A stretch of DNA of 64,000 nucleotides, from the NCBI GenBank assembly GCA_016181005.1, contig JACPAE010000004.1:78646-142645 (forward strand). The letters are read 5' to 3'. The DNA comes from Candidatus Aenigmatarchaeota archaeon (GTDB lineage Archaea > Aenigmatarchaeota > Aenigmatarchaeia > CG10238-14 > SCSR01). Each line of letters begins with the position of its first letter. Positions within the stretch are counted from its first letter, which is position 1. A model generated the notes under the pieces. It did not search any database. It worked only from the letters and a program-made list of their open reading frames with translations, and was not told where the DNA came from. This document shows, in pieces, positions 33,834 to 48,386 of the stretch. The position numbers were made by a program, and so were the translations under genes.

Positions 33834-35150
33834 ATGAAACCTATTAGAACACTCATCATGGGAGCAGCTGGCAGGGACTTCCATAACTTCAACATGGTTT
33901 TCAGAGATAATCCAAAGTACAAAGTTGTTGCTTTCACTGCCACACAAATTCCTGATATTGCGAACAGAAGTTATCCAAATGAATTATCCGGAAAGTTGTA
34001 TCCCAAAGGAATCCCAATATATCCGGAAATAGTTTTAGCCGATTTAATTAAGAAATTAAAGGTCGATTTAGTCGTTTTCGCTTACAGCGATGTTAACCAT
34101 GAGTATGTGATGCACAAGGCTTCGATTGCTTTAGCAAACGGCGCTGATTTTGTTTTACTTGGGCCAAATTCAACAATGCTGAACTCTTCCAAGCCTGTAA
34201 TTTCCGTCACTGCAGTAAGAACTGGTGCTGGCAAAAGTCAGACGTCTAGAGCGATAGCAGAAATTCTTAGAAAACATGGTAAGAAAGTTGTAGCCATTAG
34301 GCACGGGATGCCTTACGGAAATCTCTTAAAACAAAAATGTCAATGGTTTGCAAGTGCGGAAGACTTTAAAAAACATGACACAACAATAGAAGAAGAAGAG
34401 GAGTATCAGCCTTGGATTGATCATGGATTTGTTGTGTATGCTGGTGTGGATTATGGAGAGATATTAAGAGAAGCAGAAAATGAGTCGGATGTCATCATTT
34501 TCGATGGTGGAAATAACGACTGGGGATTTATCAAATCTGATTTGTACATAGTGGTTGCCGATCCACATAGACCGGGTCATGAATTAACTTATTATCCAGG
34601 ATTTGTTAATTTCTTGTCAGCAGATGTAATTGTTATTAATAAAATCGACAGTGCCAAGAAAGAAAATATAGAAATTGTTAGACAACATGCAAAGCAATAC
34701 AATCCGAAAGCAAAGATTATTTTGGCAAAATCACCAGTAACAGTTGACAAACCTGAACTGATTAGAAATAAGCGTGTAATTTTAACTGAAGATGGGCCTT
34801 CTCTTACCCATGGTGGTATGCCTTATGGCGCAGGATCCATTGTTGCAAAGAGATATAAATGTAAAGTGGTTAATGCCCAAAAATATGCTGTCGGCTCTAT
34901 CAAAAAAGTTTACAAAAAATATCCGCATTTAAAGAACGAACTGCCGGCTATGGGATACAGTAGCAAACAAATCAAAGAGTTGGAAAAAACAATAAATTCA
35001 GCAAAATGTGACGCTGTTATCGATGCTACTCCTGCTAATCTTTCACGAATCTTAAAAATCAATAAACCAATCGCCAATGTAACCTACGAAATGGGAAAAG
35101 AAGCTGTTAAAAGTTTGGAAGCAATATTGAAAAAAACAAAGTTTATTTAA
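33834..35150 (+). CDS. P-loop NTPase, COG2403/cyclic 2,3-diphosphoglycerate synthetase-like family
   Basis: N-terminal ILGAAGRDFHNFN and internal P-loop RTGAGKSQTS; 438 aa. Confidence 0.4.
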   Translation: MKPIRTLIMGAAGRDFHNFNMVFRDNPKYKVVAFTATQIPDIANRSYPNELSGKLYPKGIPIYPEIVLADLIKKLKVDLVVFAYSDVNHEYVMHKASIALANGADFVLLGPNSTMLNSSKPVISVTAVRTGAGKSQTSRAIAEILRKHGKKVVAIRHGMPYGNLLKQKCQWFASAEDFKKHDTTIEEEEEYQPWIDHGFVVYAGVDYGEILREAENESDVIIFDGGNNDWGFIKSDLYIVVADPHRPGHELTYYPGFVNFLSADVIVINKIDSAKKENIEIVRQHAKQYNPKAKIILAKSPVTVDKPELIRNKRVILTEDGPSLTHGGMPYGAGSIVAKRYKCKVVNAQKYAVGSIKKVYKKYPHLKNELPAMGYSSKQIKELEKTINSAKCDAVIDATPANLSRILKINKPIANVTYEMGKEAVKSLEAILKKTKFI

Positions 35151-36373
35151 TTATTGAATTTTCTGAATAAATGATTTATCGAATTTGGTGTCACACCTAT
35201 TTTAAAATTATCAAACACGTATTCACTAACATTACCACCAGACACGCCCCTTTTCTTTAAATACATAATCATTTCTTTCACTTTCATATCAATCTCCTCT
35301 ATGCTTTTATAATTTTCGATCATACTAACTAACTTTTTGAGTTTGTTTTTTCTTCCTTTTGCGTATTTGAAAATAGATATTTTTTCGGCAGTCAAAATAC
35401 TTTTCCTATTATGGATGCTAACAGCATCACCATCTAAATAAGCATCTATATTCAATTTTCTCAGAAGCTTGATAATAAACTGTTGGTTTGGTTCACATGA
35501 TAGTTCTATTCTCCAAAAATTATGTGTGCTACCATCCCCATCATAAAGTCCTTGTAAAAACGGTATAATAAAACTTTTTGGACATGAGAAAATCCATTTC
35601 ATTTTAACTTTATCGTATGTGGTTCTTTCATTAATATCAAGACCCAATAGAGATTGAAGTAAATAGCGAATAAAGGGTGATTTTTCGGTTATCCATCTAT
35701 ATTCACCATAAGGAGCTCTTTCTCTATAGTCAACATGATCTTTGATTCTATGAGCAGTTATTCCTAGTGTAATGAAATATTTACATACATTATCACCAAT
35801 ATCCAAATCCCAATCATATCTTCTTGTCAGCGAAATTAAACATTGATTAGAAAATCTATATCCAAGAGGTTTCGAAGTATCACTGACCATCATACCCAAA
35901 ATATACGCCAATGCCTTTTCTTTTAGACCCACGTTTTTATTACGGTTTCCTAACTGTTTTAGTATGAAAATGATTTCATCGTAAAACTTTATTTCCATCG
36001 GTACTTTAATAAAATCAAAGTACGCATGGCCTCCCTTTTTAGAATGAAGGGGCAATAGCTTGTGTCTTATGTTTAGTCTACAGTTAGGTATTGAAGAAGC
36101 AAGAACATACAGATAAGGTTTAGACTTATTGAGATATCTATTAACACAATTTCTAGGTAGTTTGAGCCTTTTTTCTATTGAGATATAAGTGAATCCTTTC
36201 TTTCGTAGTTTATTTACTAGGAAATAATTTTTACATCTTTTCATATGAATTGCATAAAACTCCCCAGAGGTAAGATCACTGTAAAAATAAAGATTCTTCA
36301 ATCTTCTTTCGACATCTTCCCACGAGTTAAACTTGTTCATATGAAACACCTTATAACTTCTATCGTATATCAA
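35147..36373 (-). CDS. Free-standing double-motif LAGLIDADG homing endonuclease-like protein
   Basis: Two LAGLIDADG-type motifs (LAYILGMMVSDTS and FLQGLYDGDGSTH) about 110 aa apart; AT-rich gene; 408 aa. Confidence 0.6.
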   Translation of the reverse strand: MIYDRSYKVFHMNKFNSWEDVERRLKNLYFYSDLTSGEFYAIHMKRCKNYFLVNKLRKKGFTYISIEKRLKLPRNCVNRYLNKSKPYLYVLASSIPNCRLNIRHKLLPLHSKKGGHAYFDFIKVPMEIKFYDEIIFILKQLGNRNKNVGLKEKALAYILGMMVSDTSKPLGYRFSNQCLISLTRRYDWDLDIGDNVCKYFITLGITAHRIKDHVDYRERAPYGEYRWITEKSPFIRYLLQSLLGLDINERTTYDKVKMKWIFSCPKSFIIPFLQGLYDGDGSTHNFWRIELSCEPNQQFIIKLLRKLNIDAYLDGDAVSIHNRKSILTAEKISIFKYAKGRKNKLKKLVSMIENYKSIEEIDMKVKEMIMYLKKRGVSGGNVSEYVFDNFKIGVTPNSINHLFRKFNN

Positions 36374-36447
36374 TTAGTTACGTTACTATATAAAGCTTTC
36401 GGAGGGGTTCATTTCCCACATCATTAACAACATTTAAATCCTTTGCT

Positions 36448-37152
36448 ATGCTCTATTTAACTATGACAACAACCAGCCAGCTATACCTGCCAATAAAAGG
36501 CATGCAATACTCAGTTATACCGGAAGTGTCTCTTCTTGGAAAAGACTTGTGGGAAGCGCAATTATACGCCCAGGATAATGGACTGGTAGTCTTGTCTTCT
36601 CCTGACATAAACAGGCTGGCAAGAGCCGTAAAGGGCGACAATCCAGACAGGCAATTCCTAAGATACGCAAGGGAACAGGCTGAAAAGCAAGGAACTTCAT
36701 TAAACGACAACGACGCAAAAGACGGATATAAACGGCTTCATGACGGATTATGGAAACAATACGTTGCTATAGCAAGGGAAATTCTTGTATGGACAAGAGA
36801 CGCACAACCTATTAATCACCCCATGATTGTTTTGAAAGATATGCCTGTAACGTCCCATCTAATAACGGACTATAGAGTTGAAAAGCAGGGCGACGGCTAT
36901 AGAATAGTCGAAGCTGTTGTAACGTCAGCCAACTGGATGAAAGAGGACGGGGCAATAACTCCTGAAATGGCACAATTGTTAGGCGCCGAACCCAATACAC
37001 ATGTCTGGACAAATCCAAATCCTGATTATGAAAATGGACTGAGGGCTCTCGGGTGGGACTTCAGGGGCCGTGAGAGGCCGTACCTGGTCTCGGACTGGGA
37101 GCCTTGGGACAGGAACTCCTATGGGGGTTCGCTTTTGGGTAGAAGGCTGTAA
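36448..37152 (+). CDS. DGR target (variable) protein; VR occupies the last 33 or so codons
   Basis: 3' end (37045-37143) matches the template repeat at all non-adenine positions; higher GC than neighbouring genes. Confidence 0.75.
   Translation: MLYLTMTTTSQLYLPIKGMQYSVIPEVSLLGKDLWEAQLYAQDNGLVVLSSPDINRLARAVKGDNPDRQFLRYAREQAEKQGTSLNDNDAKDGYKRLHDGLWKQYVAIAREILVWTRDAQPINHPMIVLKDMPVTSHLITDYRVEKQGDGYRIVEAVVTSANWMKEDGAITPEMAQLLGAEPNTHVWTNPNPDYENGLRALGWDFRGRERPYLVSDWEPWDRNSYGGSLLGRRL
37045..37143 (+). repeat. DGR variable repeat (VR)
   Basis: Aligns to TR 37389-37517; all 16 internal mismatches fall where TR has A. TR AAC/AAT codons correspond to GAC/TAC/GTC/TAT/GGT in VR. Confidence 0.8.
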
Positions 37153-37244
37153 GCTGTAAATGAAACATTAACAATTAGATTTATTCTATAAATCATAATT
37201 CTATATTCCTGGGCTATTGCTGGACAATGATGAAGGCAATGTCT

Positions 37245-37342
37245 GGGCTACACGCCTGTCCATAGCGCATTAGGGCTTTTTCCGTTTGGCCATGAAATAC
37301 AGAGGCGACAGATAGTAGCTATGACGGATGACATGACTAGTG
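37245..37342. repeat. Conserved ~98-nt element, copy A (between VR and TR); possible structured ncRNA or cis element
   Basis: About 95% identical to 47348-47446 (4 differences counted by eye). Confidence 0.6.
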
Positions 37343-37388
37343 CGAAACCTGAAGCTTCAGTGAAAACTTGGTGGATGGGCTAAGATAA

Positions 37389-37517
37389 GCTCTCAGGTGG
37401 AACTTCAGGGACCGTGAGAATATGTATCACGAAAGGCCGAACCTGAACTCGAACAGGGAGCCTTGGAACAGGAAATCCAACGACCTGATCTCCAATAGGG
37501 GTTCGCTTTTGAATAAC
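37389..37517 (+). repeat. DGR template repeat (TR)
   Basis: Intergenic, ends 20 nt upstream of the RT start. Rich in AAC/AAT codons in the VR frame. Carries two in-frame 15-nt segments absent from VR. Confidence 0.8.
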
Positions 37518-37537
37518 CCAGACCGCCCAGGATTTTT

Positions 37538-38503
37538 ATGAAGACGTACAATAAAATCTTTAACAAACTATGCTCCTTAGAGAATCTTAAACTGGCATTC
37601 AAAAAAGCCAAGAAAGGCAAAAGCAAGAAATGGTACGTAAAGGAATTTGAATGCAATTTGGATAATGAATTGACGAAATTAAAAATGGAACTGGATAATC
37701 AAACCTACAGACCACAGACATTAAAGAGATTCATAGTAAGAGATCCGAAAACAAGGGTCGTTCACGCATCAGCTTTCAGAGACAGAGTAGTTCATCATGC
37801 TATATGCAACATAATAGAACCTGTATTCGAGAAGATTTTCATTAATGACAGCTATGCCAACAGGAAGAAAAAAGGAACTCTTTCGGGATTAAATAGATTC
37901 GACAAATTCAAACATAAAGTTACTAGAAATCGTGAGTTATTAAGGAGTGCTAAAGACGGCAATATGACTGTAGGTTATGCCCTAAAAGCAGATATAAGGC
38001 ATTATTTTGATACTGTTGATTTGGAAATCCTAATGGAAATCATCCAAAAGAAGATAATCGACAGCAAAGTCCTGCGGTTAATAAAAGCAATTCTGGACAA
38101 CCATGATTTCAAAACTAAAGGAAAGGGAATGCCTCTTGGAAATTTAACGAGCCAGTTTTTCGCTAATGTCTATCTTAATGAGTTGGATTATTACGTGAAG
38201 CACAAACTCAAGGTAAAATATTATATTCGATATGTGGATGATTTTGTTATTCTGCACAGGTCTAAAGAAAAACTAGCGCTGTACAGGTGGATGATAGACA
38301 ACTTTCTAAAGCAGAGACTTAAGCTCGAATTGCATCCTGAGAAATCGAAAATCGTCCCCTTACATTATGGCGTAAAGTTACTAGGTTTTCGTGTGTTCTA
38401 CTACTATAAGCTACCACGGAAAAGCAATCTAAGGATTTTTGAAAAGAAATTAAGTATCTATACATTGACACCCAGAGAGAGAGAGAGCATATTGAAAAAC
38501 TGA
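37538..38503 (+). CDS. DGR reverse transcriptase
   Basis: RT motifs including YVDDFVIL (YxDD) and the DGR-specific motif-4 variant PLGNLTSQ (cf. IGNLTSQ of Bordetella Brt); 321 aa without a maturase or endonuclease domain. Confidence 0.85.
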   Translation: MKTYNKIFNKLCSLENLKLAFKKAKKGKSKKWYVKEFECNLDNELTKLKMELDNQTYRPQTLKRFIVRDPKTRVVHASAFRDRVVHHAICNIIEPVFEKIFINDSYANRKKKGTLSGLNRFDKFKHKVTRNRELLRSAKDGNMTVGYALKADIRHYFDTVDLEILMEIIQKKIIDSKVLRLIKAILDNHDFKTKGKGMPLGNLTSQFFANVYLNELDYYVKHKLKVKYYIRYVDDFVILHRSKEKLALYRWMIDNFLKQRLKLELHPEKSKIVPLHYGVKLLGFRVFYYYKLPRKSNLRIFEKKLSIYTLTPRERESILKN

Positions 38504-38613
38504 ATAAAATACTTGAAGGGGTGGTTTGGTTACGCTGCACAAGGAAATACTTACAAATTGAGAAAGAGAATTGTTAAAAGAACCAATAATATGATTCGAA
38601 ATCAAATAAAATT

Positions 38614-39459
38614 ATGAAGTTAGCTGTTGTTGCTTTAGGCGGTAATTCTTTGATTCACCCCAAAGAACGAGGAACTGCCGAAAAACAGATCAAACGTGTT
38701 AATAAGACAATTAGCCATCTTAAACCTCTTGCAAGAAAATTTACCCTAGTTTTAACACACGGCTCGGGACCTCAAGTGGGCAATCTATTGTTTCAGCAAA
38801 AGCTTTCTAAGAAAACTTTGCCAGAAATGCCTTTAGACACCTTAGATTCTATGGTGCAGGGCCAGCTCGGTTATTGGATACAGCAAGCTGTTGAAAATGT
38901 TCTGCATAAGAATGCCGTCACTATCATTACACGTGTGCTAGTTGACAAAAGCGACAATGCATTCAAACATCCTACCAAGCCAATAGGTCAGAAGAGCTGG
39001 AAAAAAATGGTAGCATCCCCCATACCAATTCAAATAATTGATGTGGAAAAAATCAAAGCTCTAGTAAAAAATAATTTTGTTGTTATCGCTTGTGGCGGCG
39101 GCGGCATCCCGGTAATTAAAAAGGTTGGAAAGTTCAGCGGTGTAGAAGCCGTGGTGGACAAAGATCATGCCACACAAAAACTTGCATCGCAATTGAAAGC
39201 CGATACAATAATCTTCCTTACTGATGTGCAATATGTTTTTTACAATTATGGGAAATCAAGCCAAAAGCCTCTTAGGAAGTTGTCAATTGAAAATGCTATA
39301 AAATATCTCAAGGATAACCAGTTCGAGGAAGGGTCTATGAAGCCTAAAATTGAGGCAAGTGTGGAATTCCTGAAGAAAGGCGGAAAGAAAGTCTTGATTA
39401 CTTCTCCTGAGAAATTAAATTTAGCACTAAAGGGAAAGGCAGGAACAGTGGTTGAATGA
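38614..39459 (+). CDS. arcC: Carbamate kinase
   Basis: MKLAVVALGGNSL N-terminus, amino-acid-kinase fold; 281 aa. Confidence 0.75.
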   Translation: MKLAVVALGGNSLIHPKERGTAEKQIKRVNKTISHLKPLARKFTLVLTHGSGPQVGNLLFQQKLSKKTLPEMPLDTLDSMVQGQLGYWIQQAVENVLHKNAVTIITRVLVDKSDNAFKHPTKPIGQKSWKKMVASPIPIQIIDVEKIKALVKNNFVVIACGGGGIPVIKKVGKFSGVEAVVDKDHATQKLASQLKADTIIFLTDVQYVFYNYGKSSQKPLRKLSIENAIKYLKDNQFEEGSMKPKIEASVEFLKKGGKKVLITSPEKLNLALKGKAGTVVE

Positions 39460-42026: not shown

Positions 42027-43038
42027 ATGTTACATAGCGGTATAATGTACAATCTCGGAGCAATAGGCTTGGGTCATTGGGTAAAGAGATTGCATCATGT
42101 GCTTGAAAAAGGAAACAAGATGAAGCTTCTCAAGGCTGTTGCACTCAAAACTTACGAAGAAAGGAAGGACGAATTGGAATCTTACGGGATAGCAAAAGAC
42201 AGATATTTTAATGTGAACTCAGACGGTAAAATTCCAACCGGGTTTTTCAGAGATATCGACGTCGTGCAGATAGCAAGCCACAATAAGTTCCATTTCAACC
42301 AACTGCTCCAGTGCCTCTCAAATAGAAAACTCACTATAGTAGAAAAGACTTTAGCTGTTAATAGAGACGAGTTCAACCAAGTCATGGAGAATAACAAATT
42401 TTGACACAGTTTTTCTTGAGAAAGCCGATGAGGAAGACACTAGAAGAGGATGGGTTTTTTCGCCTGAACACGGCGGCATATTCATGGACTTGATACATCC
42501 GGTAGAGATTCTAGTCCAGATATTGAAAGCGGATTTGGACGAACTGACTGACGCCAGGACATATATAGTGAAACCTGAATACGACAGCAAGAATCCGAGC
42601 GCAGTGCAAGTCATCTATAAAGTTAGTGGTAGTAAATTTGCAAAGGACGCAGTCGCAACAATAAAGCTCGGCAAAGGCTTTGATATGGCTTCAGACAAGA
42701 AAATCATGCGACTGTATTTTGAAGACGGCACGTTTATCGAGTTCGAATATCTAAACACAGAAGAAGAGCTTGCGACAGGCAAAAGAGGAAGTTGGAAGCT
42801 GTTCAAGAGCGAAGAAGGCGGTGCCAAATTGTTGGAAAGCAAGGAGGTGCAAGGCCTTTTGTCCTACGAGACTCTGATAAACGAGGTTGTAAAAATTCTT
42901 CAAGGCGGAGAGATGCCTCTGACGTTGGACGAGATAAAACGCATGTACGAGTCCGAGTGGCAGTTCCAGGAAATCTCAAAAGATTTGAAGCCGATTACAG
43001 ACAAGGAAGAGATTAAAAAACTCACTGAGGGTATTTAA
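42027..43038 (+). pseudogene. Gfo/Idh/MocA family oxidoreductase disrupted by a +1 frameshift in a T-run (or sequencing error)
   Basis: ORF 42027-42404 carries the NAD-binding N-domain with the EKTLA motif and stops at aaattttga. Frame +1 is open from 42403 into ORF 42484-43038. Removing one T from tttt gives ...NNKFDTVFLEKADEED... read-through. Confidence 0.55.
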
Positions 43039-43063: not shown

Positions 43064-43774
43064 ATGCCAACTATAGTTGTAGCCACCTCTATCGAGGAAG
43101 CTTTACACGAATTAGCAAACTATCTAGTCCCTATAGAGCAATCCAAATTTTCCCAATTAGGGTGTTACGGAGAGCCGTTAAGATCCAACAGGCAAGTTGA
43201 ACTTAAAGGCAGGGGATCTCTTGTAGGAGACGATGGTACAATTAGACTTAACCTGCCGGAACAGATACTATTTTTCAACTTACTAGACTCAAAATACGGT
43301 CCTCTAGAGCACGGCAATCTGGAACGGCAATTAAGAGCAGCCTATTCTCCAGAAGGGCAATCCTACAAAGACAATGTTCTGGCTCTTTTCTGGGTGTATA
43401 CAGGCGAGGTTGGAATAAAATTAGAAAATGGTCATGTGTTTGGAAGAGCTGTTAAAGTTGAGCCTATACCAACAGGTATATCAACAGGTACTGTTGTTTT
43501 TGAAGACGAATCACAAGCTCAGCCCAGCCCAGGGGACTACAAATTTACTCTAAACAGATCGGGAGTTTATGTGCCTACTGACATAGGTCGATTTGATCAA
43601 ATAGGAGAAGCAGAAGGCAATGGTTATTGGCATGGTGTTTATCCAGACAGCCAAGGCAGGTCTGTTGTCAGGTGCGGCTGGGACTCTGGCGATGGGGGGT
43701 TTGGCGCGGATGCGTACGGGCTGTTGGTCAGGGCCGTCGCTACCACTCTGGGTACGTGGAGAAAGGCAGCTTAA
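43064..43774 (+). CDS. hypothetical protein, Gly/Trp-rich C-terminus (paralog family with 36448 and 46688)
   Basis: GNGYWHGVYPDSQGRSVVRCGWDSGDGG tail resembles the C-termini of the DGR target and ORF 46688; GC-rich. Confidence 0.4.
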   Translation: MPTIVVATSIEEALHELANYLVPIEQSKFSQLGCYGEPLRSNRQVELKGRGSLVGDDGTIRLNLPEQILFFNLLDSKYGPLEHGNLERQLRAAYSPEGQSYKDNVLALFWVYTGEVGIKLENGHVFGRAVKVEPIPTGISTGTVVFEDESQAQPSPGDYKFTLNRSGVYVPTDIGRFDQIGEAEGNGYWHGVYPDSQGRSVVRCGWDSGDGGFGADAYGLLVRAVATTLGTWRKAA

Positions 43775-46520: not shown

Positions 46521-46687
46521 GTTAACTAATTGTTTCTCTTGTTTTATAAATATTCGCCCGACGATTTTCCATCGCTTCACGCACTGGCTTTCTATAAGCT
46601 ATACTTACATGAATTAATAATATTTAAATCCTTTCCTGTCACTATTAAATTAGATTATAATGACCACGGCCAGACAGCTTAGTTTCA

Positions 46688-47299
46688 GTGCCGGAAGAGC
46701 AAGAATTGTATACTGTAAAGGTCCGAACGGGTATGAACGCAGGAGTATGGCGAGTTGGCAGACAACTTGTCAGAACACCAAATGGCATCTTTATACCATA
46801 TAATGAAGGATTGACTGTAGTACAAGCTTATGACGCAGTACAAAATGATCCGGCCTTGCTTGAAGCATGTCTTGAACTTGTTCCAGTAACAGTTTTGTTA
46901 TACGGCATACAGCATGATGGAGATTTTTATAAAATGCTGAGAGGAACTTACCAGTTGACTGGAAGCGGCGTTGTTGACTCCCGCCTTTTGGGAACGCCAA
47001 ATGTGACCAGAGGCGATCTGCAATACCATGGATTAAGAAATGACCGCCCTATTGCCAGAATCGAACCCCAAAATGGACGTGTAGAAAAACTCGATAAAAC
47101 TGCTTTATGGGGCGTTGGAAAAGGCTCTAAGGTAGAATCTGAAAATCCAACACATCCAACATACATGTATAATGCTGATGGTAATAGATTTGTTGGCTTG
47201 GGCTTCGGGTACGGCGACGCCGTCGGCGTGAACGCGGACTGGAATCCGTTGAGTCGGGCCTTCGATTGGGGCGCCCGGTTGGCAAAGAAGGCAGAATAA
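46688..47299 (+). CDS. hypothetical protein, Gly/Trp-rich C-terminus (paralog of the DGR target family)
   Basis: C-terminal NPTHPTYMYNADGNRFVGLGFGY resembles PNTHVWTNPNPDYENGLRALGWDF of the DGR target; followed by a second copy of the ~98-nt element. Confidence 0.4.
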   Translation: MPEEQELYTVKVRTGMNAGVWRVGRQLVRTPNGIFIPYNEGLTVVQAYDAVQNDPALLEACLELVPVTVLLYGIQHDGDFYKMLRGTYQLTGSGVVDSRLLGTPNVTRGDLQYHGLRNDRPIARIEPQNGRVEKLDKTALWGVGKGSKVESENPTHPTYMYNADGNRFVGLGFGYGDAVGVNADWNPLSRAFDWGARLAKKAE

Positions 47300-47347
47300 A
47301 AACTTATCCTTGAAAATCAAATTTTTTATTTGTCCTGGCGAAAGCAT

Positions 47348-47446
47348 GGGATACACGCCTGTCCATAGTGCATTAGGGCTTTTCCGTTTGGCCATGAAAT
47401 ACAGGGGCGACAGATAGTAGCTATGACGGATGACATGACTAGTGAG
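47348..47446. repeat. Conserved ~98-nt element, copy B
   Basis: Near-identical to 37245-37342; lies in a convergent intergenic region. Confidence 0.6.
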
Positions 47447-48386
47447 TCGCGAGATAATCCTTGATGTGGTCAATCATGCTCGTCCCGTAAGGGTCTATGC
47501 TGTTCTTCTCGGCCATGTAGTAGGAGACAAAATCGCCTAAAATTATCATGTGCAGAATCCTTTCCAGCCTAGTCTCGCCCTCCCCAAACACTTCATGAAC
47601 ACCCGTCCTCTTGCTCAGCAGTTTCTTGTCCACGTCAAAGCTGTTCTTCACGTCCCTGTCCTCGTGCGATTCCCGCAGGAAAATCACCGAGAAGTTGCTG
47701 TCAAGCCTATGCCATGACTCGACGTCATTGTGGTGTATCTCCGGCAGTATCTCGTCCTTTGCCAGCAACTTGGAGTTCTCATTCAACTGCGTCTTGAACC
47801 TGAGTGCCGGGGACGGATAGTGGGACACTATAATCGGCATGGTTCCGTTGATTTTATCCACCAGCTGCTTGGCCTCGTTCTCTATCCTGTTCATGTTCTT
47901 CGACAAAGTCCTGAACTCCGGCACCTTTACAAGCTTCAGGCTTTCGAAAACCGACAAGGATGCGGCAAGCAGGTAAGGGAATGCGACCCTGGGCATCAGG
48001 CCCTCGTTGAGCTTGACGCAAGGCAGCTTCTTCTTCACTGCCAACTCCCTCATCTTTCCCCCTGACGTTATGCAGACTGTCTTGCACTTTCTCTTTACAG
48101 CCTGCTCCAGCTGCGCCAGAGTCTCCCATGTGTTGCCCGAATAACTGGCAGCTATCACAAGAGTGTTCGAGCCGGCATAACCCGGCAATTTGTGGTTCCT
48201 GGAGACCTCGATTGGCACGTGCAATGCGTCCTTGAAAGAATCCTTTATGACATCCCCGGATATGGCCGAGCCCCCCATGCCGCAAATGACTATGTTGCTG
48301 AACTGCCTATAGTCGGCAGGAAGCTTTACGTCAGAACTAAGAACGTCCTTGACATACTTGAGAGAATTTCTTATGTCCGCAAGCAT
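47439..48386 (-). CDS. Bifunctional phosphoglucose/phosphomannose isomerase (SIS domain)
   Basis: NIVICGMGGSAISG SIS motif near the N-terminus; 315 aa. Confidence 0.65.
   Translation of the reverse strand: MLADIRNSLKYVKDVLSSDVKLPADYRQFSNIVICGMGGSAISGDVIKDSFKDALHVPIEVSRNHKLPGYAGSNTLVIAASYSGNTWETLAQLEQAVKRKCKTVCITSGGKMRELAVKKKLPCVKLNEGLMPRVAFPYLLAASLSVFESLKLVKVPEFRTLSKNMNRIENEAKQLVDKINGTMPIIVSHYPSPALRFKTQLNENSKLLAKDEILPEIHHNDVESWHRLDSNFSVIFLRESHEDRDVKNSFDVDKKLLSKRTGVHEVFGEGETRLERILHMIILGDFVSYYMAEKNSIDPYGTSMIDHIKDYLATH

Follow-up and report, generated by a model that had tools for sequence, protein, structure and literature searches.

The window analyzed here, a 64,000-nt stretch of an archaeal metagenome-assembled genome (MAG; assembly GCA_016181005.1, contig JACPAE010000004.1, positions 78,646 to 142,645 of the forward strand), carries a diversity-generating retroelement (DGR), in which a reverse transcriptase (RT) rewrites the variable region (VR) of a target gene from a template repeat (TR). 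Judged by its sequence, the element is a chromosomal DGR of a DPANN-archaeal clade, with the order target gene, RT-16 RNA, TR, and RT, and without an Avd gene. The DGR itself is an expected member of that clade and adds little alone. What matters more are four features of this clade: the placement of the RT-16 RNA, a long-range helix, TR segments that resemble bulge-helix-bulge (BHB) introns, and a GA tract in the RT gene. We consider it probable that the account given below is right as a whole (a DPANN DGR with the proposed working cycle, an RT that is off in this genome, and a GA switch in the clade). The narrower proposal, that the TR RNA of the clade is processed by the host tRNA-splicing machinery so that only spliced RNA rewrites the target, and that a subclade switches its RT by means of a GA tract, is put forward tentatively, as slightly less likely than not to be right.

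The final ~100 nt of the open reading frame (ORF) that ends at 37152 are repeated 344 nt downstream, in a gapped alignment of three blocks (31 + 41 + 26 nt) whose gaps are two 15-nt segments present only in the TR. There are 14 core mismatches over 98 aligned positions (4 + 6 + 4 per block; 11 A>G and 3 A>T), and all 14 fall where the TR has an adenine, with 0 at other bases. Because only ~28 of the 98 aligned TR positions are adenines, the chance of such an outcome is ~(28/98)^14, or ~2e-8. The homology runs ~10 nt further 5' into the tail of RT-16 (37034-37043 vs. 37375-37387), and this extension adds one A-site mismatch and the sole non-A mismatch (A at VR position 37038 vs. G at TR position 37379). 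An earlier reading of the same DNA, made from its letters and ORFs only (the original prediction), had counted 16 mismatches, all at TR adenines. The repeat is real, and tabulation by TR base finds no spread over the four bases; the adenine rule holds for the core, the count differs, and the one non-A mismatch lies just outside the coordinates then used. When both strands of the window were scanned block by block, tolerating mismatches at TR adenines and allowing up to four non-A mismatches per block, each TR block was matched once elsewhere, at the VR, with no non-A mismatch, and no other VR for this TR was found in the window on either strand. It is the 14 adenine positions differing between TR and VR that lead us to conclude that the DGR was functional here in the past.

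At their 3' ends the VR reads TTGGGTA and the TR TTGAATA. The GG at VR positions 37138-9, opposite AA in the TR, is part of a clade-wide difference between the initiation of mutagenic homing site of the VR (IMH, GGGTA) and its counterpart in the TR (IMH*, GAATA), a contrast present in six related loci (including those we denote L001, L003, and L005-L007), so these two mismatches may not be the product of mutagenesis. An IMH/IMH* contrast is a mark of DGRs, and the pair in the window matches the TGGGGT/TGGAAT pair described for Nanoarchaeota DGRs (Paul 2015, PMC4372165). Read in the VR frame and without its two extra segments, the TR has 8 AAC, 2 AAT, and 6 AGG codons, which agrees with the abundance of AAC/AAT codons noted originally, and roughly 1e13 protein variants are possible if the two IMH codons are left out. 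The VR has 13% A and 41% G, the rest of the target gene 35% A. In a survey of the VR/TR pairs of the window, L001-L007, and L025-L037, substitutions at TR adenines are mostly to G (11 G and 4 T over the full alignment of the window; 13/13 G in L005; 18/18 G in L037) and C is rare; this bias makes the VRs G-rich (41-42% G).

The protein evidence points the same way. The RT matches Pfam RVT_1 (1.1e-22), and its best relative of solved structure in the PDB is the Bordetella phage DGR RT (bRT; 8ub7, E 5e-43), with group II and retron-type RTs at about 1e-19 to 2e-19 or weaker. It carries YVDDFVIL and PLGNLTSQ, as was noted at the outset, which are instances of the YxDD and [LI]GxxxSQ (motif 4) sequences of DGR RTs, and its GMPLGNLTSQFFANVY aligns to bRT GIPIGSLTSQLFANVY. 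Pfam gave no matches on the target proteins. A high-confidence model of the target, the check originally suggested for its C terminus, has a C-type-lectin fold, with TaqVP and AvpA, variable proteins of DGRs, as its closest matches; the VR lies within coding sequence at the C-terminal end of that fold. The target ORF had been taken to start at 36448; a start at ATG 36463 is more likely, giving 229 aa as in NCBI MBI2084848.1 and homologs.

The host is a DPANN archaeon, Candidatus Aenigmarchaeota, of tiny size and from groundwater. In a protein search the target is 100% identical to MBI2084848.1, from a Candidatus Aenigmarchaeota MAG. RT homologs at 60-79% identity that are named by source are mostly from Aenigmarchaeota (plus one from Nanoarchaeota and one from Methanosarcinales), and related RT loci include Woesearchaeota and Nanoarchaeota MAGs. 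Membership in the known DPANN DGR clade follows from the bRT-like RT, the Aenigmarchaeota host, and the clade-typical IMH pair. There is no ORF between the target and the TR/RT that could be an Avd-like gene, just as first stated (the space is filled by the RT-16 RNA), and no neighboring gene is conserved across related loci. This does not exclude DGR membership, because ~74% of DGRs have Avd and the Avd-less "architecture A" is a recognized class that covers 29% (Wu 2018, PMC5758913). A generic RVT_1 match and the "retron-type" labels on some homologs are what could be said for a chance repeat beside a group II intron, retron, or other RT. That idea has a negligible probability and is already refuted by the adenine-only mismatches, the affinity to bRT, the C-type-lectin target, and the rewriting of VRs in relatives (see below). 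As far as sequence can tell, the element passes every DGR test applied in this analysis, and the claim of a DGR in an archaeal genome is upheld by the DPANN host together with the adenine-only TR/VR differences, the RT, the target fold, and the IMH/IMH* pair.

TR-only segments and the RNA around the template

The archaeal splicing endonuclease recognizes a 4-bp helix that separates two 3-nt bulges (PMC6379350, PMC7714728), and cleavage of a BHB takes place between the second and third bulge nucleotides (PMC12397907). Both TR-only segments of the window have a 4-bp helix and two 3-nt bulges on opposite strands at their junctions (see Table 1 for coordinates). A cut after the second bulge nucleotide joins CGTGAG to AGGCC at segment 1 and CAGGAA to CTCC at segment 2, and in each case the product is the sequence found in the VR. 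Two 15-nt segments in frame were part of the original prediction. They exist and are absent from the VR; that they are in frame is incidental, as relatives have segments of 16, 17, 23, 26, and 31 nt, for which reason a rule of multiples of 3 was dropped.

We counted 19 TR-only segments of at least 10 nt in 11 loci, including the window, with lengths from 15 to 39 nt: 24 + 21 nt in L001; 15 in L003; 30, 39, and 21 in L004; 24 in L005; 15 + 21 in L063; 16 + 31 in L025; 26 + 21 in L027; 30 + 17 in L028; 24 in L030; and 23 in L032. Segment 2 of the window has a homolog of 21 nt in L001, L063, and L027. The architecture is shared: 4 nt of the central helix, a 3-nt A-rich bulge (AGA/AAA), an interior usually bounded by its own helix, 4 nt complementary to the first four, and a second 3-nt bulge (AAA, AAU, AUU, AAC, or AUC). 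If each bulge is cut behind its second nucleotide, the joined product equals the VR sequence and the excised lengths equal all those observed, including those that are not multiples of 3. In 14 of 17 evaluable segments all four pairs of the helix form, at the same distance from either junction, and the others have three of four pairs; other combinations of offsets score 0-3, except for the +2 diagonal (7-9). When the 19 segments are aligned, pairing reaches 92% in the central helix and 89.5% in the inner helix, but only 51% in the outer exon-exon helix. The central helix covaries (0.697 vs. 0.217; 0/500), and the helix of segment 1 takes the forms CGUG:CACG, CACG:CGUG, GGUG:CAUC, GAUG:CAUC, CGCG:CGCG, and AAUG:CAUU in different lineages. 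An earlier model of ours, a 5-bp hairpin with RT hopping (skipped length equal to hairpin length minus 4), was replaced by the BHB geometry, which explains the same numbers.

Omission of the segments is a reproducible property of the transfer, because the VRs of L063 and L064, two rewritten versions from one strain (see below), both lack the same two segments although substitutions flank each of them on both sides. TR-only segments of at least 10 nt were found in 11 of 18 archaeal loci vs. none of nine bacterial DGR loci with confident TR/VR pairs. We therefore favor the view that the splicing machinery of the host removes these segments from the TR RNA, as would be expected of segments that have the geometry of an endonuclease substrate and are confined to archaeal loci. 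The archaeal splicing endonuclease is known to act also on rRNA precursors and on a few mRNAs, and relaxed substrate forms are tolerated in ARMAN and crenarchaeal lineages (PMC6379350, PMC7714728). Compared with archaeal BHB introns (in tRNA, rRNA processing stems, cbf5 pre-mRNA, and the HVO_1309 5' untranslated region), the TR-only segments have the same 4-bp helix, two opposite 3-nt bulges, and inner helix. They differ in that the host RNA would be the template of a retroelement rather than a tRNA, rRNA, or mRNA, in their weak outer helix, and in being known from sequence. No literature that joins DGRs with BHB motifs or a splicing endonuclease was found.

Several points weigh against this interpretation. 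The outer exon-exon helix is weak, so the motif would have to be a relaxed BHB form, and the A-rich bulges let the junction slide by a few nucleotides, so that the canonical cut is compatible with the data but not uniquely fixed by them. Splicing is read from geometry, with no endonuclease, ligase, or spliced RNA observed (the endonuclease was not searched for in the genome), and the introns and helices come from related loci that are not fully independent examples. No prior description of the RT-16 placement, the closing helix, the BHB-like TR segments, or the GA-tract shifts was found in the literature searched, and no mention of TR mini-introns or an RT GA tract in that on DPANN DGRs; the principal survey of DGRs in DPANN archaea (Paul et al. 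2017, Nat Microbiol) lies outside this coverage. The principal alternative to splicing is that the RT itself skips the segments, either by template jumping over small stem-loops or by slippage at A-rich microhomologies. Precedent exists, since TR/VR indels have been ascribed to slippage at AAC repeats and length differences between TR and VR occur in 7% of DGRs (Wu 2018, PMC5758913). Also, the junctions are A-rich and slidable, with 3-4 nt of adenine-tolerant microhomology such as GAGA/GAAA, and spliced RNA has not been seen, which is why bypass by the RT retains a considerable, though lesser than even, probability. However, microhomology jumping predicts direct repeats, not a covarying 4-bp inverted repeat at equal distances from the junctions with 3-nt bulges and an inner helix. 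Moreover, segments of at least 10 nt were seen in archaeal loci only, and the skipping is exact and was reproduced in two independent rewritings of a VR.

The RNA on the 5' side of the TR belongs to the Rfam family RT-16. The match covers the whole model (positions 1-158 of 158), extends to the start of the TR, and adjoins the RT gene, as the family description requires. Of 25 related archaeal RT loci, 22 have RT-16 adjoining the TR on its 5' side; five bacterial loci all lack it. The motifs RT-1 to RT-19 were reported as lying near RT genes, with only RT-10 linked to a DGR (Weinberg 2017), and later papers list RT-16 without adding more. The family (RF03019) was published without an assigned function, whereas here it constitutes the 5' domain of a DGR template RNA. 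Its 3' tail together with the start of the TR (37375-37393), GGGCTAAGATAAGCTCTC, reads G L R * A L and mirrors the conserved GLRAL codons of the target (37034-37050) with a 3-nt insertion. The TR/VR homology therefore reaches the conserved GGGCUA end of RT-16, which may be the point at which cDNA synthesis stops.

Minimum free energy (MFE) folding of either the window or L064 pairs the 15 nt after the TR with the 5' part of RT-16, so that the TR becomes a loop closed by long-range helices. To evaluate helix b-b', the 7 nt 5' of CUACACG were aligned against the 7 nt 3' of the TR-terminal GAAUA(A/G). All seven pairs are Watson-Crick in 15 of 20 loci (14 distinct sequences), 89.5% of cells are paired, and compensatory double changes occur at all seven pairs; covariation is 0.717 vs. 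0.307 in shuffles (0/500), with slid controls at or below 0.27. A second helix, a-a', pairs the first 7 nt of RT-16 with the 7 nt just ahead of the RT start codon. The long-range helices and the local P1 stem of the Rfam model are in competition; in most loci the 5'-terminal strands of RT-16 find better partners 3' of the TR than within P1 (6.1/7 vs. 4.55/7 Watson-Crick). In the BPP-1 phage RNA, the "cPRT Stop" duplex of avd and Sp sequences brackets the TR and is reported to be widespread (bioRxiv 10.1101/2023.10.23.563531). The closing helix described here is alike in bracketing the TR; in this case, the large structured domain is 5' of the TR.

These observations suggest a working cycle. 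A single transcript would fold into the RT-16 domain followed by the TR, and the two covarying helices between the 5' part of RT-16 and the 15 nt after the TR would close the TR into a loop. Both 15-nt segments would most probably be removed by the tRNA-splicing endonuclease of the archaeon, together with an RNA ligase, before, or independently of, reverse transcription; bypass of the segments by the RT would yield the same product. The RT would copy the template, misincorporating opposite adenines, and the cDNA would replace the VR at the C-terminal ligand-binding face of the C-type-lectin-fold target, the direction of transfer being set by GGGTA in the VR vs. GAATA in the TR. The statistics of the repeat, the homologies, the covariation of the RNA, the frame states, and VR rewriting in a relative are observed; endonuclease splicing, a reversible switch, the site of priming, and the promoter are inferred.

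The RT reading frame and its GA tract

The original prediction was of a complete DGR with a 321-aa RT and of a candidate for active hypervariation in this genome. The 321-aa ORF exists, but it is a truncation, and neither completeness nor present activity is supported. Past an in-frame TGA, the RT frame runs on for 37 codons that include the conserved thumb motif GWFGY..GNTYKLRK. Translation in three frames and comparison with intact homologs such as P0003 (RERESIEKINKMLEGWFGY) places the disruption at an (AG)7 tract: the 33 nt after it give the expected 11-codon linker HIEKLNKILEG only in frame +2, and one extra G in a run of four (38518-38521) restores frame 0. The sequence of the RT region is 100% identical in three other independent assemblies of the same population, which rules out an assembly error as the source of the lesion. 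An altered genetic code or a leaky TGA was considered and is unsupported, as TGA is an ordinary stop that closes 14 of the 49 long ORFs of the window. Thus, the RT is most likely off in this genome, with its thumb motif untranslated. At least five assemblies of the same study encode an identical target protein, its VR region among the rest, and the VR appears frozen. An intact RT and ongoing diversification of the VR, as expected of a working DGR, are missing in the window and are found in the related pair L063/L064.

Among the 120 best RT homologs, 21 encode RERE from a GA tract. The thumb motif is absent from 14 of these 21, vs. at most 16 of the 99 without a tract. The tract is 12-19 nt long across relatives, (AG)6-9.5, and in every off allele that we fetched (the window, L001, L002, L003, L024, L063, L066, L070, and L071) the frame changes exactly within it. 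Tract-less RTs of the clade that were examined by sequence all reach a stop at normal length, except that of L047 (195 aa, truncated). The nearest relatives of the window, L070 and L071, also have (AG)7, and all of their downstream sequence is in frame +2, i.e., off; from this, (AG)6 is taken as the ON state of the sublineage, with one inserted G in addition in the window.

Two comparisons are decisive. One is between L064 (an NCBI MAG) and L063 (a Logan assembly), the same strain in two datasets, with 99.7% identity across 5.8 kb. Their only differences are one single-nucleotide polymorphism, a 4-nt indel in the GA tract, and 12 substitutions clustered in the VR, 11 of them at TR adenines. 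L064 has a 15-nt tract and a 350-aa RT (ON), L063 a 19-nt tract and a 319-aa RT (OFF). By this rewriting of the VR, the DGR clade is active. L065, with (AG)7 (14 nt, ON), and L066, with (AG)8 (16 nt, OFF), form a second pair at 96% identity, so that two ON/OFF pairs differ in the length of the tract. Some lineages need a shift of +1 and others of -1 to restore the frame, and with a tract of 12-19 nt such shifts in different directions disfavor a single programmed ribosomal frameshift. The out-of-frame GWFGY.MHGNTYKLRK is kept through synonymous changes (10 synonymous vs. 6 non-synonymous codon differences between L001 and L002), which argues that the full-length RT is still under selection.

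The tract is a perfect short repeat within an ORF, and changes in its unit number shift the frame, as in simple sequence repeat (SSR) contingency loci. We read it as a hypermutable, contingency-type on/off switch of the RT across the clade, and presumably a reversible one. Similar to the bacterial SSR contingency loci of Haemophilus, Neisseria, and Campylobacter, there is a perfect in-ORF tandem repeat that shifts the frame, about two-thirds of the alleles are off, and close strains differ in repeat number. The differences are the archaeal host, a dinucleotide of only 6-9.5 units, and a controlled gene that is a mutator (the DGR RT) rather than a surface structure; reversibility in the archaeal case would be by analogy. 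No literature linking DGRs to repeat-mediated phase variation was found.

Two other explanations of the RT lesions need to be weighed against such a switch. On one of them the element is complete and active now, either because the 321-aa RT works without its C-terminal helices or because readthrough of the TGA at 38501 yields a full-length RT whose 11-residue linker is altered. It is true that the two indels total +3 nt and leave the thumb motif in frame 0 beyond the stop, that 320 codons upstream are intact, and that 14 adenine differences between VR and TR attest to past function. However, TGA is a normal stop in the window, the thumb motif is in frame in all intact homologs, the target including its VR is the same across assemblies, and the residues of bRT beyond ~287 form the thumb and contact RNA in the solved complex (bioRxiv 10.1101/2023.10.23.563531). 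We thus regard present activity as improbable, although it should be noted that the off state and the identity of the VR are read from assemblies, and minor variants of the VR or of GA length may exist. The other explanation is ordinary pseudogene decay, in which the DGRs of this genome are dying and the GA tract is a mutational weak spot with no regulatory role. The window RT carries two lesions and would need two events to be restored (loss of one GA unit and of one G), which fits decay equally well; a second cassette in the window lacks TR and RT and has a frameshifted target; and neutral slippage over three frames predicts two-thirds of alleles off, as is seen among tract-bearing homologs. 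Against this, 14 off alleles keep ~320 intact upstream codons and the thumb motif through synonymous changes, RTs that share no more than 70-79% identity retain a perfect GA tract, and near-identical strains differ both in tract length and in VR content. For the clade, decay as the general explanation is on balance unlikely and a contingency-type switch is preferred; the RT of the window, however, lies two steps from ON, and there decay must be taken seriously as an alternative.

Second cassette, flanking sequence, and assembly breaks

The features of the locus are collected in Table 1. About 10 kb downstream of the DGR is the relic of a second, decayed DGR cassette (46660-47444). Its target belongs to a different family (~213 aa), homologs of which are 65-73% identical and have a hypervariable C terminus; the C-terminal 43 aa of the second target align to the VR module of the first target family. 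A copy of the RT-16 core follows directly after ORF 46688-47299 and ends where a convergent gene for a SIS-domain sugar isomerase (47439-48386, minus strand) ends. Templating of the second VR by the TR of the first cassette was rejected on account of many non-A mismatches. Members of both target families stand alone, far from any RT, in other DPANN genomes (L019 5095-5793; L067 3549-4181; L068 4001-4642); for the first family this holds for one homolog. Remote targets therefore seem common in this clade, which suggests that they are served in trans. A third target, proposed for ORF 43064-43774 because of its GC-rich C terminus, was discarded, as it is unrelated to the target family (hhalign probability 0.2%).

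Table 1. Positions of the DGR, its RNA elements, and the second cassette in the window
Feature	Position	Strand	Details
Candidate archaeal TATA-like promoter	36432..36444	+	ATTTAAATCCTTT box ~20-30 nt upstream of the target start; read from sequence
DGR target gene	36463..37152	+	229 aa, C-type-lectin fold, VR at C terminus
VR	37044..37141	+	14 mismatches to TR, all at TR adenines
IMH-like invariant VR end	37124-37141 (~18 nt)	+	GGGGTTCGCTTTTGGGTA
RT-16 RNA (Rfam RF03019)	37208..37388	+	89.5 bits vs. gathering score 50, E 8.5e-13
Outer helix strand a, CCTGGGC	37208..37214	+	pairs with 37525-37531; MFE folds, matched vs. mismatched-locus test
Strand b, GTCTGGG	37241..37247	+	immediately 5' of conserved CUACACGCC; pairs with 37517-37523
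TR	37388..37515	+	exons 37388-37418, 37434-37474, 37490-37515; ends in IMH*-like GAATA
TR-only segment 1	37419..37433	+	helix CGTG 37413-16/CACG 37428-31; bulges AGA 37417-19, AAA 37432-34
TR-only segment 2	37475..37489	+	helix CAGG 37469-72/CCTG 37484-87; bulges AAA 37473-75, ATC 37488-90
Strands b' CCCAGAC (37517-23) and a' GCCCAGG (37525-31)	37517..37531	+	right after TR; close the RT-16 + TR domain 6 nt ahead of the RT start
RT ORF as found	37538..38503	+	321 aa, truncated
(AG)7 tract in RT gene	38474..38487	+	AGAGAGAGAGAGAG; encodes RERE; frameshift site
Out-of-frame linker	38488..38521	+	HIEKLNKILEG in frame +2; TGA 38501-38503; ends in GGGG 38518-38521, one extra G
Untranslated remnant of RT C terminus	38504..38617	+	back in frame 0; IKYLKGWFGYAAQGNTYKLRKRIV...
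Second-cassette target, different family	46660..47299	+	frameshifted near 5' end (MTTARQLSF / VPEEQELY); ORF 46688-47299
VR-like C terminus of second target	47195-47285	+	12% A, 42% G
Truncated RT-16 core copy	47347..47444	+	96% identical to 37244-37342; no TR or RT follows

The ATTTAAATCCTTT box is also found ahead of the target of the second cassette (~46624), and its role as a promoter is that of a candidate. Immediately upstream of the first target, a 408-aa ORF on the minus strand (35147-36373) has LAGLIDADG-like motifs (YILGMMVSD, LQGLYDGDGS) and a sub-threshold match to Pfam LAGLIDADG_3 (E 0.031), and it may encode a homing-endonuclease-like protein. Our search for a DNA hairpin or cruciform downstream of the VR returned only an unconvincing 7-nt AT-rich inverted repeat (37178-37194).

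The two copies of RT-16 create difficulties for short-read assembly. Contigs L013-L018 end within them (window positions 37318-37345 and 47435), and VR and RT never occur on one contig, so contig-based surveys of public short-read assemblies would miss this DGR. L013-L015, which carry the exact RT, break inside the repeat at window positions 37345 and 47435; none of them has the VR of the first target, and they are thus uninformative on VR variation. At 42382-42388, the window lacks ~115 nt that are present in L013 (5045-5159), an independent assembly of the same population. With GAATA microhomology at its edges, the deletion leaves two ORFs in place of one gene for a GFO/IDH/MocA-type oxidoreductase (375 aa in L013); it is either a real variant or a MAG assembly artifact.

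Relation to known DGRs and implications

Among the closest known systems are the DPANN/Nanoarchaeota DGRs (the DUSEL4 elements and AvpA; Paul 2015, Handa 2016; "clade 5" of Roux 2021). The target described here is only 12% identical to AvpA, with the VR at its very C terminus, and the locus differs from the Nanoarchaeota/DPANN DGRs in having no Avd-like ORF, a TR with BHB-like mini-introns, and an RT with a GA tract. With the DGR of Bordetella phage BPP-1 (mtd-avd-TR-brt) it shares adenine-specific TR-to-VR transfer, a C-type-lectin target, and a homologous RT (E 5e-43) with the I/LGxxxSQ motif in both. Unlike BPP-1, the archaeal locus has no Avd, its TR holds segments that are never transferred, and its structured RNA (RT-16) is 5' of the TR, whereas the Sp region of BPP-1 is 3' of the TR. 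Also, the RT start codon follows the archaeal TR by only ~20 nt, which means that the element for priming would have to lie elsewhere than in BPP-1.

For Avd-less DGRs, a conserved RT-16 domain and a closing helix that bracket the TR give an organization of the template RNA that is now testable. If the TR-only segments are indeed spliced, they would supply in nature the kind of proof of an RNA intermediate that intron loss gave in the classic experiment. They would also represent a new class of substrate for the archaeal splicing endonuclease and explain TR/VR length differences that have been ascribed to RT slippage. In practical terms, pipelines for DGR detection that require an ungapped TR/VR alignment or a full-length RT will miss or mis-score such elements, and RTs of ~320 aa in this clade are best read as off alleles. 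If the GA tract is a switch, the frame of the RT would be a second-order evolvability device that restrains a hypermutator, and a rare candidate for phase variation in archaea.

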